The notes below the pieces were generated by a model, which saw only the letters and a list, made by a program, of their open reading frames with translations, ran no database searches and was not told the origin of the DNA. A stretch of DNA of 42,312 nt from an uncultured archaeon. GTDB taxonomy: Archaea > Thermoplasmatota > Poseidoniia > MGIII > CG-Epi1. The translations under genes and the position numbers were made by a program. The stretch lies in NCBI GenBank assembly GCA_964651915.1, contig CAZYZI010000003.1, positions 1-42,312 on the forward strand, written 5' to 3'. This document shows, piece after piece, positions 2,385 to 41,818 of the stretch (position 1 is its first letter; each line of letters begins with the position of its first letter).

Positions 2385-3607
2385 AACTTATCAATGATAG
2401 CGTCACCAAATTCACTACATTTTAGCAATTTAGCACCATCCATTAGCCTCTCAAAGTCATAAGTGACAGTCCTAGCTCCAATTGCACCTTCCATGCCTTT
2501 AACGACAAGATCTGCAGCTTCAGTCCAACCAAGATGACGTAGCATCATTTCACCAGAAAGGATAACCGAACCTGGATTTACTTTATCTTGACCTGCATAT
2601 TTTGGAGCAGTACCGTGTGTTGCTTCAAACAAAGCGTGTCCTGTATCATAATTTATGTTAGCACCGGGTGCAATTCCAATCCCTCCAACTTGTGCAGCCA
2701 ATGCATCAGAAATATAGTCTCCATTTAGATTTAGAGTAGCAATAACATCATATTCAGAAGGTCTGGTTAGTATTTGTTGAAGCATTGCGTCTGCAATTAC
2801 ATCTTTAACAATAATTTTTTCACCATTATTAGGATTTGTAAAAGAATGCCAAGGTCCTCCATCTAGAGGTTCAGCTTCAAATTCATCTCTGGCTAATTCA
2901 TAACCCCAGTCTCTGAAACCTCCTTCCGTAAATTTCATTATATTTCCTTTATGGACTAAAGTAATTGATTTTTTGTTATTTGAAATTGCATATCTAAAAG
3001 CAGCTCTAATCAAACGTTTAGATCCTTCGCTAGAAACAGGTTTAACACCAAGGGAACTAGTTTCTGGGAAACGAATTTTAGAGACATCCATTTCATTCTT
3101 TAAGAATTCGATAACTTTTTTTACTTCAGGAGTGCCTGAATTCCATTCAATACCAGCATAGATATCTTCGGTATTTTCTCTGAATATAGCCATATTTACT
3201 TTCTCAGGTTCTTTAACGGGACTTGGAACTCCAGTAAACCATCTAACAGGCCTAACACAGGCAAAAAGATCTAAACGTTGTCGTAAGGTCACATTCAAGC
3301 TTCTGAACCCTCCGCCAACTGGTGTTGTTAGCGGCCCTTTTATTGCAACTAAATGTTCCCTAATGGCATCTAAGGTTTCTTCAGGTAACCATTCATTTAT
3401 CTCATTGAATGCTTCTTCACCAGCTAGAACTTTCTTCCATGATATTTTTTTATCATCACCATAAGCTTTCTGAACTGCAGCATCCAAAACTTTCATTGCT
3501 ACTGGAGTCACATCTTGGCCAATTCCATCTCCTACTATAACGGGAATAATGGGATTATTTGGAACGTCTAATTTTCCATTGCTACATGTAATAGAAGCTG
3601 GTATCAT
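2381..3607 (-). CDS. icd: NADP-dependent isocitrate dehydrogenase (bacterial dimeric type)
   Basis: [68 protein letters not shown]. Confidence 0.97.
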
Positions 3608-7008: not shown

Positions 7009-8055
7009 ATGATGGATAGATTGGAAAGTTTTGATTCTAGTGATTTAATGGAATTTATAACTCCACCAAAAATCAAACTAATTGGTAGTGGTGGTGCTGG
7101 AAACAATATCTTAGATAGATTATATAGTACAAGAATAGAAGGTGTGGAAACGATTGCTCTCAATACGGATGCAAATCATTTAAGTAAGTGTAAAGCACAT
7201 TCAAGGAAAGTTTTAGGAGCAAAAATTACCCAGGGAAGAGGTACAGGAGGAGATCCTCATCTGGGAAAACGTTGTGCAGAAGACGATGAAGATTCCCTAA
7301 GAGAAAAAATAGATGGTGCAGACATGGTATTTGTCATTGCAGGAATGGGAGGAGGAACTGGAACAGGAAGTGCACCAGTTGTTGCAAAATACGCTATGGA
7401 AACTGAAGCATTGGTAATAGGTGTCGCAGTTTTACCTTTCAAGGAAGAAGGATTACCAAGAAGAAAAATAGCATTACAGGGTTTATCCGAGCTCAAAAAG
7501 AATTGTCATTGTGTAATTGAATTGGATAATGAGAATCTAAATGAATTAACTAATGGAGATTGCCCAATGAAAAGAGCGTTTGATGTGATGTCTGATTTAG
7601 TAACAAGAACAGTGAGATCATTGTCTGAAGTAATAACTGAACCATCAACTATAAATGTTGATTTCGCAGATTTAAGAAAGATTATTGAAACTGGAGGAAA
7701 TGCTAAGGTTTTGTATGGTGAATCTGACAATTCAGATCCAGGAAGTGTTTTAGATTCATTATTGGGTAATCCACTGCTTGGCTCACATTACCAAGGGGCT
7801 GAAGCTGTAATGCTTCATATAACTGCAAAGAGCGAATTTTCATTGAATAATTGTCATGAGGTTCTTGCAGCATTAAAATTAGAATTATCTGAGGATGTTA
7901 ATTTGATATGGGGTCTTCGAACAGATGATTCTATGGATGCTAATGTCAAAGTTGTGATGCTTGTTGCAGCTATACCTGATAGTAATTTGGATGTTGAAAA
8001 AAAAAGTGACGAAATGATTCCCCTTCTTGGCGAATCAGTTCAAATGATTAACTGA
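7009..8055 (+). CDS. ftsZ: Cell division protein FtsZ (probably FtsZ2-type by context)
   Basis: GSGGAGNN, NTD, AGMGGGTGTG, PFKEEG, T7 loop INVDFADL; SD GGGGGTGA upstream. Confidence 0.95.
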   Translation: MMDRLESFDSSDLMEFITPPKIKLIGSGGAGNNILDRLYSTRIEGVETIALNTDANHLSKCKAHSRKVLGAKITQGRGTGGDPHLGKRCAEDDEDSLREKIDGADMVFVIAGMGGGTGTGSAPVVAKYAMETEALVIGVAVLPFKEEGLPRRKIALQGLSELKKNCHCVIELDNENLNELTNGDCPMKRAFDVMSDLVTRTVRSLSEVITEPSTINVDFADLRKIIETGGNAKVLYGESDNSDPGSVLDSLLGNPLLGSHYQGAEAVMLHITAKSEFSLNNCHEVLAALKLELSEDVNLIWGLRTDDSMDANVKVVMLVAAIPDSNLDVEKKSDEMIPLLGESVQMIN

Positions 8056-11765: not shown

Positions 11766-13420
11766 AAACCTTCGACAATACCTACGTGTAGGTTACGTTC
11801 TTTAGCTATTTTCTTTGCTTTTTCATATCCTGCATCAACATGTCTCATTACTCCCGTTCCAGGATCTGTAGTCAATACTCTTTGTAGCCTTTTGTCTGCT
11901 TCTTTTGTACCATCTGCAACAATTACCATGCCTGCATGAAGTGAGTATCCTATGCCAACTCCACCACCATGATGGAAACTAACCCATGTAGCTCCAGCAG
12001 CTGTATTCAATAGTGCATTAAGTATTGGCCAATCAGCAACTGCATCAGTTCCGTCTTTCATTCCTTCAGTTTCTCTGTTTGGTGAAGCAACAGAGCCAGC
12101 GTCTAAGTGATCTCTTCCAATAACAATTGGTGCACTTACTTTCCCACTTCTCACTAATTCATTAAATGCTAATCCAGCTTTTGCTCTTTCTCCGTAACCC
12201 AACCAGCATATCCTTGCAGGTAATCCTTGAAATTCAACTCTTTTTTGTGCCATTTTAATCCACTTGTGGAGTGCCTTATCTTCAGGAAATAAATCTAGAA
12301 TAATTTTATCAGTTTCGTATATGTCATTTGGATCTCCAGATAATGCAGCCCATCTGAAGGGTCCTTTTCCCTCACAAAATAAGGGTCTGACATAAGCCGG
12401 TACAAATCCGGGAAAATCAAATGCATTTTCAACTCCAGCTTCTTTCGCCATAGCTCTTAAATTATTTCCATAATCAAAAGTAACAGCCCCCATTTCCATT
12501 AATTTGAGCATGTAACGAATATGCGTTGCCATACTGCTGTAACTACGTTCAAGATATCCTTTCTTATCTTGATTTCTCATTTCTTCAGCTTCATCTAATG
12601 TTAGCCCATGAGGGATATATCCAATTAGTGGATCATGTGCTGAAGTTTGGTCTGTTAATAAATCAGGAACAATATTTCTTTCTATTAATCGTTCAAGTAA
12701 ATCTCCAATATTTGCTATTACGGCAATTGATTTTGCTACTTTATCTTTTTTCCATTTAAGAGCTATATCTATTGCTTCATCTATATCCTCAGAAACTTCA
12801 TCACAGTATCGAGTCTCTAATCTTTTTTTGACTCTTTTAGGATCAATTTCAGCAGCTAAGAATGTTCCTCCATTCATTGTTGCAGCTAATGGTTGGGCAC
12901 CTCCCATCCCCCCTAATCCTCCAGTTACAACTAGTCGGCCATCAAGACTTCCGTCAAAATGCTGTCTTGCAGCTTCAGCAAATGTTTCAAAGGTACCCTG
13001 TAATATCCCTTGAGATCCAATATATATCCAAGATCCAGCAGTCATTTGGCCATACATCATTAGACCTTTCTTTTCTAATTCATCAAAATGTTCCCAATTT
13101 GCCCAATTTCCTACTAGATTTGAATTTGCGATAATTACTCTCGGTGCATCTTCATGTGTTTTGAATACTCCCACAGGTTTTCCACTTTGAACGAGTAATG
13201 TTTCGTTTCCTTCTAACTTTTTTAATGTTTTAATTATTGCATTATAACATTCCTGATTTCTTGCAGCCTTTCCTCTTCCGCCATACACTATTAATTCTTC
13301 AGGTATTTCAGCTACACTTGGATCTAAATTATTCATTAGCATTCTGAGTGCAGCTTCTTGCAACCAGCCTTTGCAACTTATTTTATTTCCATGTGGCGCT
13401 TTCACCATATTCAATGACAA
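11762..13420 (-). CDS. hutU: Urocanate hydratase (start may be ATG 13408)
   Basis: [71 protein letters not shown]. Confidence 0.97.
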
Positions 13421-13456
13421 TTCAAGAGCTCTGATTTAAACATATTTCCATTAATC

Positions 13457-13464
13457 TTTTAAAA
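13457..13464 (+). promoter_or_regulatory. Candidate TATA box for the GC-rich hairpin RNA
   Basis: TTTTAAAA ending 22 nt before hairpin start 13486. The motif is palindromic, so it could instead serve hutU. Confidence 0.4.
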
Positions 13465-13485
13465 GAGGCGATTATTAGCATATAA

Positions 13486-13552
13486 GCTGCTCCCGGCGGG
13501 CCCCCTCCCACCTCCCAACCTGTCGGTTGAGCGGCAACATTTTTTGTGGGGG
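13486..13552 (+). ncRNA. Candidate small structured RNA / leader with a CU-rich (anti-SD-like) loop
   Basis: 38/50 GC in 13486-13535; stems GCTGCTC/GAGCGGC and CCGGCGGG/CCTGTCGG with three G-U pairs valid only on +; loop CCCCCTCCCACCTCCCAA; T6 run at 13540-13545. Confidence 0.6.
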
Positions 13553-13586
13553 AAAAACAATTATAACGTTAATAATTAGTAAGTTT

Positions 13587-13742
13587 ATGAATAAAAGTAT
13601 AATCAAATCTAAAAATTACACAAATTTTATCCAGTGTATTTGTGGTTTTCAAGGTTTGTCTATAGAAACGAGACAGCATAGAGAATGCCCACAGTGTCAT
13701 ACCGTTGTAGAGGCTTGTTGTGAAGGCAACAGCTGTACTTAA
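13587..13742 (+). CDS. Small Cys-rich zinc-finger-like protein (51 aa)
   Basis: CxCG-x10-H-x2-CPQC-x6-CCEG..C, 7 Cys in 35 aa; start placed at ATG 13587; stop overlaps the sdhB stop convergently. Confidence 0.6.
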   Translation: MNKSIIKSKNYTNFIQCICGFQGLSIETRQHRECPQCHTVVEACCEGNSCT

Positions 13743-14476
13743 TTTGTTTTTCCAATTATTCTATTCCAAATCCATTTTAGTGGGTCATAATATTCATCGA
13801 CAACTCTTTCTTTCATAGGTATAATCGCATTATCAGTTATACCTATATGTTCAGGGCATACAAATGTACAACATTTTGTTATATTACAAAGTCCAATACC
13901 ATGTTCACTACGTATACTCTCTAAACGGTTGCCTTGATCAAGCGGGTGCATTTCCAATCCGGCGTTTCTAATCATAAATCTAGGTCCTGCAAACTCTTGT
14001 TTCATATCATGAGATCTTAAAACATGGCAAACATCTTGACAAAGGAAACATTCTATGCATTTTCTGAATTCTTGAACTCTATCTACTTCTTTCTGAAACA
14101 TTATAGGATCATCATCTGTTTCAGTGTGTTGGTAAGGTTGAATTCGCTTGTTTACTTCATAATTCCACGATACATCAGTTACTAAATCCTTAATCAAAGG
14201 AAATGTTTTCATGGGTTGAACAGTTAGCGTTTCGTCTTCAGGATAATCAGATAATCGAGTCATACATGTTAATTTAGGTTCTCCATTAATTTCAGCTGAA
14301 CAAGACCCACATTTTCCTGCTTTACAATTCCATCTAACAGCTAAGTCAGGAGCCTCAGTAGCTTGGATTCTATGTATTGCATCCAAAACTACCATACCCG
14401 TTTCTACCTCTACTTCAAACTCTTCTAATTTCAGGTTTTTAGGTGTTCCTCTCTGTACTCTAATTTTTCTTTTCAT
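13739..14476 (-). CDS. sdhB: Succinate dehydrogenase/fumarate reductase Fe-S subunit (Sdh1-type)
   Basis: RWNCKAGKCGSC, CIECFLCQDVC, CNITKCCTFVCP, ITDNAIIP. Confidence 0.93.
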   Translation of the reverse strand: MKRKIRVQRGTPKNLKLEEFEVEVETGMVVLDAIHRIQATEAPDLAVRWNCKAGKCGSCSAEINGEPKLTCMTRLSDYPEDETLTVQPMKTFPLIKDLVTDVSWNYEVNKRIQPYQHTETDDDPIMFQKEVDRVQEFRKCIECFLCQDVCHVLRSHDMKQEFAGPRFMIRNAGLEMHPLDQGNRLESIRSEHGIGLCNITKCCTFVCPEHIGITDNAIIPMKERVVDEYYDPLKWIWNRIIGKTN

Positions 14477-16272
14477 ACAGCCTCCTGCAAAACATACTCT
14501 TTCAAATCTGAAGGCATTTTAGCTAAAGGTGCCCTTACTACAGACATACCTTCTGGACTAGGTCTTATAATCATATTTATTTTCCCTAAGTCTTTATCAT
14601 ATTCCGGATAATCTAATCGAGTGTGCGCACCTCTACTTTCAGTTCTTTCCAAGGCAGCTTTTGCCAATGCTAAAGAAGTAATTATCATATTATTTAAATC
14701 AAGACAGAGATGCCACCCGGGGTTATAATTTCTATCTCCTTTTGCATGCAAATCAGGCAATCTTTTCTTCAAACCTTCCAATTTCTTTATTCCCTCTTCT
14801 AGTTCCTTCCCAGTTCTAACAATACCAACATTTGCTTCCATTATTTCTTGAAGTTCTTCGTGTATTTGGTATGGATTTTCTGTTCCCTGCTCAAATGGCT
14901 TTAGTGTGTCTTCTATGCTTTTGTTTATTATTTCACCATGAGGTGATACGTAAGTATTAGTTTGTGCAAAATTAGATGCACTCTGTCCTGCAATTTTCCC
15001 AAATACTAGCAAGTCAGACAGGGAATTTCCCCCTAATCGATTTGCCCCATGCATTCCTGCAGCTGCTTCACCAGCAGCATAAAGTCCAGGTATTGTTGAA
15101 GAAGCAGTCCCTGCTTCCACTTTTATTCCTCCCATCATGTAATGTGTAGTTGGTCCAACTTCCATACGCTCTTTAGTTATATCTAAAGTAGCTAGTTCTT
15201 TGAATTGATGATACATAGAAGGTAGTTTGCGTTTTATGTAGTCAGCTTCTCTTCTAGATGCAATATCTAGGAATGCCCCACCATGCGGAGACCCTCTTCC
15301 TTCCTTGACTTCAGTCATTATCGCTCTTGCAACAACATCTCTAGTCAGTAATTCAGGAGGCCTCATCGCTCCTTCTTCACCTCTCAACCAAGCATCAGCT
15401 TCTTCTTCTGATTTGGCAGTTTCAGCCGCAAATACTTCCGGAATATAATCAAACATGAATCTTTTCCCTTCGCTATTAACTAAAATTCCACCTTCACCTC
15501 TAACTCCTTCGGTTACTAATGTTCCTTTGACGCTAGGTGGCCAGACCATTCCAGTTGGATGAAACTGAACAAATTCCATATCAATTAAATCAGCTCCAGC
15601 TAAATGTGCTAAGGCATGCCCATCACCAGTGTACTCCCACGAATTGGATGTAACTCTGTATGCTTTCCCAATACCTCCAGTAGCAAGAACAATAGCTCCA
15701 GCTTCAAATACTTTCAATTTTCCAGAAGAACGATTGTATGCTAAAACCCCAGAAACGGTTTTATCTGATTTTAGTAAAGTTGTTACCGTATATTCCATGA
15801 ATACTTCAATATTTTCTTTATGGACTGTATGATCCTGTAATGCTCTAATAATTTCTAATCCAGTCCGATCACCAACATGTGCTAATCTAGGATATCTATG
15901 TCCTCCAAAATTTCGTTGGCTAATTTTCCCTTCTTCAGTTCTATCAAAGACAGCTCCCCAACGCTCTAATTCTCTAACTCTTTCTGGTGCTTTTTCAGCA
16001 TGTATTTTTGCCATTTCCCAATTTGCCAGATTCTTACTGCCTCTAATGGTGTCACGAAAATGAACTTTCCAATTATCTCTTTTATCAACGTTGCCAAGTG
16101 CGGCTGCAACACCACCCTCAGCCATAACAGTGTGAGCTTTTCCTAATAGTGATTTCGTTACAAGAGCTACTTTTGAACCATAATCGGCAGCTGCAATTGC
16201 AGCTCGTAGTCCAGCACCACCAGCACCTACAACAACGACATCAAATTTTTCAGTTTTAAATTTATCAATCAA
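14473..16272 (-). CDS. sdhA: Succinate dehydrogenase/fumarate reductase flavoprotein subunit (Sdh1-type)
   Basis: GAGGAG, KAHTVMAEGG (covalent-FAD His), QFHPTG, TEGVRGEGG, HYMMGG, HGANRLGGNSL, ESRGAH; probable TTG start at 16272 overlapping the upstream stop. Confidence 0.94.
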   Translation of the reverse strand: MIDKFKTEKFDVVVVGAGGAGLRAAIAAADYGSKVALVTKSLLGKAHTVMAEGGVAAALGNVDKRDNWKVHFRDTIRGSKNLANWEMAKIHAEKAPERVRELERWGAVFDRTEEGKISQRNFGGHRYPRLAHVGDRTGLEIIRALQDHTVHKENIEVFMEYTVTTLLKSDKTVSGVLAYNRSSGKLKVFEAGAIVLATGGIGKAYRVTSNSWEYTGDGHALAHLAGADLIDMEFVQFHPTGMVWPPSVKGTLVTEGVRGEGGILVNSEGKRFMFDYIPEVFAAETAKSEEEADAWLRGEEGAMRPPELLTRDVVARAIMTEVKEGRGSPHGGAFLDIASRREADYIKRKLPSMYHQFKELATLDITKERMEVGPTTHYMMGGIKVEAGTASSTIPGLYAAGEAAAGMHGANRLGGNSLSDLLVFGKIAGQSASNFAQTNTYVSPHGEIINKSIEDTLKPFEQGTENPYQIHEELQEIMEANVGIVRTGKELEEGIKKLEGLKKRLPDLHAKGDRNYNPGWHLCLDLNNMIITSLALAKAALERTESRGAHTRLDYPEYDKDLGKINMIIRPSPEGMSVVRAPLAKMPSDLKEYVLQEAV

Positions 16273-17117
16273 AACATCCACACCCTGTCTAATCCCCATT
16301 CAATGCAGCAGAATCTAATATAGAAATCAGTGAAACAAACCCAGAAGAGTGAAAACCATGCCCATTTCATATGTTGTTTGTTAAGACAACTTACACAATC
16401 AAATGCTTTTTGCTGAACTTTTGGTTTTTTTACTATTCTGTCAGCATATCCTCCAATTAAATGTCGCAAAGAATGGCAACCAAATGTGTACCCGCCAAGT
16501 AAAATTACGTTTAACACCATGACAAAGCTACCTATTCCTATTCCAAAATCACCTTTGAATGGTTTTCCATTGTACCACATAGAAAGCCAAGCATCATATC
16601 CTAATATGAAGATAAAAATTATTGCAAGATATAACATATACCGATGAAGATTTTGTAATATCAAAGGCATTGTGTTTTCACCCCAATAACCGGTCCTTGG
16701 TTCTCCAACAGAACAGGCAGGGGGATCTGCCCAGAATGCTTTGTAATAACTTCCTCTGTAGTAGTAGCATGTTACACGGAATCCTGCGGGAATCCAAAGA
16801 ATAAGAAATGCAGGTGAAAATGGTAACCAGTCAGGCCACAGAGGGGGTCTCTCTCCAAAAATTGCATGTTCAGTTACACCAAAAATTTCAGGTGAATATA
16901 ATGGTGAGAGATAACTTGCTCCGTTTTCACCGTCGTAAAAATAATTATTTCCCTGAAAAGCAGCCCATGTCATGTAAATTACAGCAGTACTTAGACTTAG
17001 AAAAACTACTAAAGGTTGTAGCCACCAATTATCAGTTCTAGCCGTTGGAAAAATACCCTTATCACCTGGTATATCACAGGCTTTTTCACCATCGAATTCA
17101 ACATCAACAGGAGGCAT
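16269..17117 (-). CDS. Single membrane-anchor subunit of Sdh1-type succinate dehydrogenase (Rv0249c-like)
   Basis: RTDNWW, YLSPLYSP, GFRVTCYYYR..YY.AF..DPPAC.V.EP, QNLHRY, GCHSLRH, LN..H..WAW; multiple TM helices; first gene of the sdh operon. Confidence 0.85.
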   Translation of the reverse strand: MPPVDVEFDGEKACDIPGDKGIFPTARTDNWWLQPLVVFLSLSTAVIYMTWAAFQGNNYFYDGENGASYLSPLYSPEIFGVTEHAIFGERPPLWPDWLPFSPAFLILWIPAGFRVTCYYYRGSYYKAFWADPPACSVGEPRTGYWGENTMPLILQNLHRYMLYLAIIFIFILGYDAWLSMWYNGKPFKGDFGIGIGSFVMVLNVILLGGYTFGCHSLRHLIGGYADRIVKKPKVQQKAFDCVSCLNKQHMKWAWFSLFWVCFTDFYIRFCCIEWGLDRVWMF

Positions 17118-17197
17118 CAATATCCAATTGAAGAAGGTGATTTATACAATTTGGTTAAGCCACCAACTTTTTTAGGAGGCATAAGCATTGTGATGTG

Positions 17198-37703: not shown

Positions 37704-41818
<4,115 letters not shown>

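Follow-up and report, generated by a model that had tools for sequence, protein, structure and literature searches.

Published accounts describe three of the closest known systems. The cuckoo RNAs of the Alphaproteobacteria (RSs0680/CcsR, SmelC397 and their relatives) expose a C/U-rich loop motif, CCUCCUCCC, that resembles an anti-Shine–Dalgarno (anti-SD) sequence and is thought to occlude ribosome-binding sites (RBSs), and each RNA is a row of two to four hairpins, every one bearing a single motif, on stems that vary greatly (PMC4615179). The 6C small RNA (sRNA) of Gram-positive bacteria with a high guanine-plus-cytosine (GC) content pairs its C-rich, G-poor loops with the G-rich RBS regions of several mRNAs, without a chaperone (PMC6486639). 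In the archaeon Methanosarcina mazei, the intergenic sRNA41 and sRNA154 mask RBSs by means of anti-RBS sequences, the sites of sRNA41 lying within polycistronic mRNAs; on that account, the idea of an archaeal sRNA masking the RBSs of internal cistrons is already in print (PMC5867862). Here we describe a GC-rich hairpin with a C-rich, anti-SD-like loop in a stretch of 42,312 nucleotides (nt) from an uncultured Marine Group III (MGIII) archaeon (assembly GCA_964651915.1, contig CAZYZI010000003.1, positions 1 to 42,312 of the forward strand; hereafter, the window). Comparison with relatives makes it very likely that the hairpin is the product of a previously undescribed RNA gene of about 55–60 bases in two MGIII genera, that of the window (g1) and its sister genus (g2), both in one family of MGIII archaea.

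In the literature searched, we found no regulatory RNA described for the uncultured Marine Group III archaea and no described sRNA of the C-rich-loop, anti-RBS kind for the host phylum; the RNA reported in a marine metatranscriptome paper, Tan1, is another one and comes from Marine Group II (PMC5069720).

A candidate small RNA gene upstream of hutU

The locus is a 166-nt gap between two divergent genes (window read at 13000–14100). A preliminary description, made from the letters of the window, had placed in it a TATA element, a stem of 7 plus 8 base pairs (bp) with a UU bulge and three G–U pairs, the loop motifs and a T6 run, and each of these was recovered base for base. The parts of the element, with the grounds on which each is drawn, are listed below, together with the promoter element of the divergent gene.

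13457–13464, + strand: TATA-like promoter element TTTTAAAA, read from the sequence; it ends 22 nt 5′ of the stem
13484–13486, + strand: putative transcription start, a purine 0–2 nt 5′ of the stem, placed by the usual archaeal spacing from TATA element to start and by a conserved purine before GCTGCTC
13486–13492, + strand: 5′ strand of the lower stem, GCUGCUC, from the minimum-free-energy (MFE) and centroid folds; invariant in 15 of 15 distinct variants
13493–13500, + strand: 5′ strand of the upper stem, CCGGCGGG, from the fold; a C-to-U change (column 17) and a G-to-A change (column 20) leave pairing intact in most sequences
13501–13518, + strand: 18-nt loop without G, CCCCCTCCCACCTCCCAA in DNA and CCCCCUCCCACCUCCCAA in RNA, containing CCUCCCA heptads and CACCUCC, from the sequence and the fold
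13519–13526, + strand: 3′ strand of the upper stem, CCTGTCGG in DNA and CCUGUCGG in RNA, from the fold and the pair table
13527–13528, + strand: 2-nt bulge, UU (TT in DNA), from the fold
13529–13535, + strand: 3′ strand of the lower stem, GAGCGGC, from the fold; invariant in 15 of 15 distinct variants
13536–13539, + strand: single-stranded 3′ tail, AACA, in which the first two bases never change, C holds the third place in 13 of 15 variants (U in the other 2) and the fourth place varies
13540–13545, + strand: T6 run, read from the sequence and, as archaeal transcription terminates at oligo-T, the likely termination signal
13434–13441, − strand: TATA-like element of the divergent urocanase gene hutU, read from the sequence and conserved in g1

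Positions 13486–13492 pair with 13529–13535 (7 bp) and positions 13493–13500 with 13519–13526 (8 bp), and the three non-Watson–Crick pairs (U13488–G13533, G13496–U13523 and G13498–U13521) are all G–U on the + strand. This hairpin is both the MFE and the centroid structure returned by RNAfold. The loop holds CCTCCC twice (13504–13509 and 13511–13516) and CACCTCC at 13509–13515. GC content is 76% in the stem-loop (13486–13535) versus 26–27% in the flanks (13421–13485 and 13546–13586), in agreement with the GC island that had been noticed in an AT-rich gap, and the element is single-copy in its own 1.17-Mb genome.

Comparative data carry the case for a gene. In the alignment of relatives, the TATA box, a variable spacer, the hairpin, the AAC tail and the T-run behave as one block amid flanks that have diverged or been replaced. 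The TATA element lies at a constant distance from the stem in all g1 copies, g2 has TTCTTTTTTA at that distance, and a run of T4–T7, sometimes interrupted, follows the tail in nearly all copies; tRNA genes of the same genome carry similar promoter elements about 25–37 nt upstream. The downstream neighbour varies, being an open reading frame (ORF) of 51 amino acids (aa) in some relatives, directly the 3′ end of sdhB in others (loci L018, L021 and L023) and a different gene in g2, and in one genome (G015) a small ORF of the 51-aa type is present and the hairpin absent. Because the hairpin is found with and without this ORF, and the ORF without the hairpin, the RNA gene is independent of it.

The pattern of substitutions bears on structure and strand. 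Standard pairs fill 99.1% of the 225 pair cells in the 15 distinct variants, a figure that falls to 26–67% when the 3′ partner is slid by one to three columns. Changes in the stem run from G–U to G–C, from C–G to U–G and from G–C to G–U, with G–C to A–U in two sequences, and the 45 of 225 pair cells that are G–U or U–G (counted from the pair table) would become A–C mismatches if read on the − strand. Because every G–U pair and every wobble change fits the + strand only, selection probably acts on a + strand RNA; this, and the joint conservation of TATA box, hairpin and T-run, uphold the earlier proposal of a stand-alone + strand transcript and speak against a piece of a gene or of an untranslated region. 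The bulge reads UU, UA, UC or CU among relatives, with the adjacent stem bases fixed. Insertions and deletions in the loop comprise whole 7-nt CCUCCCA heptads, of which relatives carry two or three, and such 7-nt changes rule out a coding role on either strand; a reading as a − strand terminator was also rejected, the helix having A–C mismatches on that strand and no T-run after it.

A screen for GC-rich islands outside long ORFs returned 12 in the genome, of which the hairpin is the sole orphan; the other 11 are tRNAs, 23S rRNA, 5S rRNA, RNase P RNA and one island read as an intron-bearing tRNA. Inspection of 35 intergenic CCTCC sites gave no sibling hairpin with a CCUCC loop, under an 80-codon ORF mask that also hid the known hairpin. 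Taken as a whole, these data leave us highly confident that 13457–13545 holds a gene with the strand, boundaries and structure described here. The island read as an intron-bearing tRNA, at positions 6–102 of contig C24 of the same genome, resembles on its − strand a tRNA with a long intron; it is not called by ARAGORN and has no Rfam match at E ≤ 0.01.

Distribution, loss and genomic setting

Conservation of the element is high and its range narrow. A search at the DNA level through 60 further genomes of the class recovered it at E ≤ 2.2 × 10−9 in 22, all from its own family, and in several congeners whose flanks fail to align the 60-nt core is 93–100% identical. With a covariance model, one copy each was found in 18 of the 31 other g1 genomes and in 9 of 9 g2 genomes, and one further g1 genome has a copy cut by a contig start, which brings the positive g1 genomes to 19 of 31; a 50-nt core is nearly invariant across the carriers in both genera, with diverging flanks. 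The model gave no match in two g3 genomes or in two genomes of the order's other family. Across 151 genomes of the class, strong matches (E ≤ 3.1 × 10−17) were confined to the element's own family (14 of 18), and 132 genomes of three other families yielded nothing better than E = 0.0036 (weak matches, 0.0036 to 1). The clade is shallow; nonetheless, its depth is not trivial given the difference in base composition between the genera, as the g2 loci examined have 61–67% GC versus 38–43% in g1, yet the lower stem, the position of the bulge and the AAC tail are identical.

Sequence collections were scanned as well. Among the 80 genome-contig stretches listed (of 108), 16 are copies of the element, all in archaeal metagenome-assembled genomes, and the remaining 64 of the 80 are chance matches in GC-rich bacterial DNA. 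A loose pattern matched at least 117 stretches of metagenome contigs, at least eight of which are copies, with new variants at L245 and L261, and viral contigs gave 0 matches to the element. Records that bear the element are titled Marine Group III or CG-Epi1, or carry vaguer archaeal labels, so the marine archaeal host that had been suggested from the sequence stands. The element could help in the annotation of MGIII genomes and serve to mark the two genera.

The best three of the weak matches, in another family (f4; L063, L064 and L066), share a similar stem, a UU bulge and the AAC layout; picked by the model, they were rejected as chance because they lie inside a small ORF conserved in the three loci, with coding-looking flanks and one pair-breaking change. 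That ORF is about 95 aa long and adjoins a tRNA gene; it contains a 60-nt stretch (L064 1501–1567, with L063 and L066; genomes G073, G105 and G152) that is near-invariant at the nucleotide level between variable flanks, which is odd for a coding region. The stretch is able to fold as a long hairpin that has CCCAUCCC as its loop and shows a UU bulge and an AAC tail. In three congeners, the assembly breaks within the MGIII hairpin or no more than about 60 nt from it (end of G024:C65 and start of G024:C16, start of G005:C173, start of G014:C126), and heterogeneity of heptad number in the sampled populations, or poor coverage of the GC-rich hairpin, are possible causes.

The 13 g1 genomes without a model match comprise the one with the truncated copy, five in which the hutU locus is assembled and seven in which the 5′ part of hutU is unassembled. 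Of the five, three (G004, G015 and G030) keep the TATA element of hutU and have lost the promoter and hairpin of the RNA gene. In the other two (G020:C37, locus L329, and G028:C5, locus L330), hutU begins about 12 nt or less after sdhB, a space that holds no promoter region, and urocanase in these genomes appears to be co-transcribed with the succinate dehydrogenase genes.

In the window, hutU (urocanase, identified by Pfam) lies on the − strand with its ATG at 13408. On the other side, a Cys-rich 51-aa ORF without a Pfam match (13587–13739, + strand) starts about 40 nt past the T-run and has a zinc-ribbon-like look (CxC ... CPxC ... CC..C); beyond it, the − strand carries an sdhB-like and an sdhA-like gene. 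The latter is immediately preceded, on its upstream side, by a hydrophobic, Cys-containing ORF of 283 aa without a Pfam match (16269–17120, − strand), perhaps a membrane or anchor subunit of the complex of an unusual kind. On contig C71 of the same genome, a direct repeat some 45 nt long occurs in two imperfect copies, near 260 and near 3345 (+ strand), which are separated by about 3.1 kb. The first of them forms the 3′ end of a tRNA-like sequence (T-arm plus ...CACCUCCACCA), and the pair looks like the attachment sites of an integrated element.

Possible modes of action

The composition of the loop suggests how the RNA might work. The TATA promoter would drive a + strand transcript of about 55–60 nt that is essentially one GC-rich hairpin, in which a bulge of 2 nt on the 3′ side separates a lower stem of 7 bp from an upper stem of 8 bp, then a short AAC tail and an oligo-U end. 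The helix would hold open a near-G-less loop of 18–25 nt made of CCUCCCA heptads, the working part, which could pair in trans with G-rich sequences of the Shine–Dalgarno (SD) type (GGAGGUG, GGGAGG) and thereby keep ribosomes off those cistrons, a minority, that are SD-led. The comparative data show the existence of the gene, its strand, boundaries and structure; transcription itself, the trans-acting mode and the SD targets we only infer. As a whole, the proposal of an independent MGIII small RNA gene acting in trans on SD sites is tentative, and we rate it as somewhat short of probable.

Several observations are consistent with this proposal. The 16S rRNA of the genus ends in GGAUCACCUCCU, as does a fragment from the window's own genome (contig C65), and CACCUCC in the loop is identical to 7 nt of that tail, so the string had been rightly named as anti-SD. 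The loop is unpaired in both the MFE and the centroid folds and complementary to the SD consensus, and it thus offers an accessible C-rich seed. SD-like 5-mers peak 8–12 nt upstream of first ATGs (15–25 per position versus 1–11 elsewhere) and precede 117 of 983 long ORFs: SD-led genes exist in this genome but form a minority. Two SD sequences that had been singled out earlier are present, GGGGGTGA upstream of the ftsZ-like start at 7009 and AGGAGGT upstream of the purA-like start at 40556.

Other results weigh against it. Loop invariance, which the preliminary description had put forward as a check, does not hold beyond a core: heptads number two or three, CACCUCC reads CACCUCA in two of the five distinct g2 variants, and CCCACCUC is the part common to 15 of 15 distinct variants. 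Nor did the predicted enrichment of targets at SD sites appear, as 7-mers complementary to the loop lie 1–13 nt upstream of candidate ATGs in 24 of 640 cases versus a mean of 22.9 and a maximum of 46 for 30 shuffled C-rich loops, although the test is crude and of low power (the 16S tail itself scores only 14 of 578). Apart from the gene itself, the genome has no complement of the loop longer than 11 nt, and the 11-nt one falls in a histidine-kinase-like ORF. Conservation is stronger in the stems than in the loop, the opposite of the cuckoo RNAs. The element is conserved across g1 and g2 with pairing kept, but covariation of the stem is non-significant (10 of 15 pairs invariant, one pair changed on both sides, and the score reached by 78 of 500 column shuffles). 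The fold energy is no better than chance for the composition (z-score 0.17; 116 of 200 dinucleotide-shuffled sequences equal or better it), so that the case for a real gene is one of comparative evidence and not of thermodynamics. RNA-labelled contigs do not cover the hairpin informatively: among assembled contigs of relatives in four RNA-labelled runs (of 10 runs for 13100–14000; 4–6% of sampled words in each of the four), the 5′ part of hutU is covered, and one contig, from a run whose label as RNA is a guess, ends at 13514. Finally, the RNA gene is absent from all five no-match g1 genomes with an assembled hutU locus, and it is therefore dispensable.

We nonetheless adopt the anti-SD proposal as the most economical one, with a mode of action plausibly like that of the cuckoo RNAs, 6C and sRNA41. 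Our confidence in it is only modest because the tests run add no support. One candidate target was discarded along the way: a 9-nt match in the Gly-rich codons of hutU is lost across synonymous changes in relatives.

The foremost alternative is that the RNA belongs to a small ribonucleoprotein or serves as a protein decoy, with a protein binding the invariant helix and UU bulge, or the C-rich heptads, and no mRNA pairing involved. The partner, titrated or scaffolded by the RNA, might be a poly(C)-binding factor, of the KH type or another, or a protein that normally binds the CACCUCC tail of 16S rRNA, with which the loop shares its 7 nt. Conservation of the stem above that of the loop hints that something, a protein for instance, recognises the helix by its sequence. 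None of the 15 distinct variants departs from the others in the lower stem, in where the bulge sits or in the AA of the tail, across genera whose loci have 38–43% and 61–67% GC, and the loop varies in length and at its edges. Constraint on a helix at the level of sequence is more typical of protein-bound RNAs, and stem constraint exceeding that on the loop edges suits such an RNA at least as well as one that pairs with mRNAs; a choice of two or three heptads also recalls multi-site sponge RNAs, and loop complements show no enrichment at translation starts. No gene for a partner protein is linked to the element, however, which is flanked by genes for urocanase and succinate dehydrogenase subunits and by a small ORF that varies; the sequence shows neither a K-turn nor another known motif for protein binding; and the invariance of the stem may merely reflect the shallow depth of the clade. 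We regard this alternative as somewhat unlikely.

A broader version of the anti-SD proposal would make the RNA a hairpin-borne copy of the ribosome's own anti-SD, that is, a global anti-SD competitor or 16S-tail mimic, which would either coat SD elements or titrate a factor that recognises the CACCUCC tail. We consider it unlikely. If true, a streamlined planktonic archaeon would use it to tip translation between SD-dependent internal cistrons and leaderless initiation, the number of heptads (two or three) would tune its capacity, and loss of the gene in some species would mark lineages that dropped this layer of control.

Slightly more doubtful still is a role in cis at the hutU promoter region, with the synthesis of a short divergent transcript, or the GC-rich DNA itself, modulating or insulating the urocanase promoter (in DNA form, as a G-quadruplex on the − strand and an i-motif on the + strand) or, in another version, acting as a barrier to read-through from the sdh operon. 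The element does lie directly upstream of hutU, and divergent from it, in all copies whose upstream flank was inspected, the two TATA boxes being about 16 nt apart; the window copy has four G3 tracts on the − strand; and in G020 and G028, which lack the element, hutU follows sdhB without its own promoter region. Synteny, however, is weak evidence over so shallow a clade, the four G3 tracts are not retained in g2 variants, and the hutU TATA element survives in three genomes from which the RNA gene is missing. The G–U pairs and wobble changes, moreover, point to selection on a + strand RNA helix and not on DNA, and the − strand helix has A–C mismatches with no T-run after it.

An rRNA-directed function, that of a chaperone or guide in small-subunit assembly whose loop binds a conserved internal segment of 16S rRNA, GGAGGAAGGAGGGGG, is improbable. 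This segment (positions ~1113–1130 of L086 in G029:C53, and the same in L087–L094) gives the best duplex between loop and 16S rRNA, −28.3 kcal/mol over 5 bp, a 2-nt mismatch and 8 bp, which 0 of 200 shuffled loops reach; yet the margin is small (shuffle minimum −27.5 kcal/mol, median −20.7), the segment is identical in g1 and g2 and g2 loops fit it less well, so that there is no co-variation, C/D and H/ACA boxes are absent and congeners with the same 16S segment lack the gene.

Least credible of all is a functionless GC-rich remnant, left for example by a mobile element, a one-time tRNA or a terminator and still present only because the clade is young, since the narrow distribution, repeated loss, unexceptional fold energy and non-significant covariation that it would account for are set against a core that is 93–100% identical amid unalignable flanks and was kept through a shift from about 40% to about 65% GC, a single copy per genome, no copies in viral contigs and a promoter and T-run conserved along with the core.

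Should the anti-SD proposal hold, an RNA of 55–60 nt that displays an anti-SD would be a handle on translation control in archaea that mix leaderless and SD-led genes, and it is small enough for direct biochemistry without cultivating the host. Even with a different mechanism it would be a clean new RNA family; should it be no more than an ordinary sRNA restricted to one lineage, little would be gained.

Comparison with known RNA families

Rfam 15, which covers tRNA, SRP RNA, RNase P RNA, C/D and H/ACA sRNAs and, where curated, 6C and cuckoo-type families, gave 0 matches at gathering scores in the whole window. This is in line with the earlier statement that the hairpin was not recognised as a described archaeal family, and no hit to a housekeeping RNA appeared. 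A permissive scan (E ≤ 10, 13380–13780) returned only chance-level scores for CRISPR-DR39 (17.4 versus 39 bits), pntA (17.1 versus 54) and Acido-1 (15.4 versus 50). The element was rejected as a tRNA or tRNA-like RNA, as ARAGORN found no tRNA in the window and Rfam none, and as a C/D box sRNA, as neither RUGAUGA nor CUGA occurs in 13480–13550 on the + strand and there is no Rfam match.

With H/ACA sRNAs it shares a single GC-rich hairpin and a short 3′ tail, and the window copy has ACA at 13537–13539. It differs in that this ACA is not conserved, the tail being AACA only in some copies and otherwise AACU, AACC, AAUA or AAUU, and in having no pseudouridylation pocket and no Rfam match; membership was rejected on these grounds, and also because the 18-nt loop of C, U and A only is unable to form an upper helix and no G–A motif (K-turn or K-loop) is present.

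The nearest likenesses are to RNAs with anti-SD-like or C-rich loops. As in the cuckoo RNAs, the C/U-rich motif resembles an anti-SD and is repeated, here inside one loop. In contrast to them, the element is one hairpin with two or three heptads in a single loop and near-invariant stems, the exact cuckoo motif is absent from its loop, and it has an archaeal host, a TATA promoter and no Rfam match. Membership was rejected on both the number of hairpins and motifs and the free variation of stems described for cuckoo RNAs, since 10 of 15 stem pairs are invariant and it is the edges and length of the loop that vary. The 6C sRNA likewise has a C-rich, G-poor hairpin loop; it is, however, a multi-loop bacterial RNA with shown targets, to which the element has no sequence or model similarity in the permissive Rfam scan. 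The archaeal sRNA41 and sRNA154, compared here by their review description, mask sites with an anti-RBS sequence, the mechanism that the preliminary description had put forward; they belong to another phylum and have experimentally supported targets and regulation, whereas the element is a minimal single hairpin. Set beside these systems, it appears as a candidate new family of archaeal sRNAs, distinct in its single minimal hairpin, its tandem heptads and its near-invariant stems.

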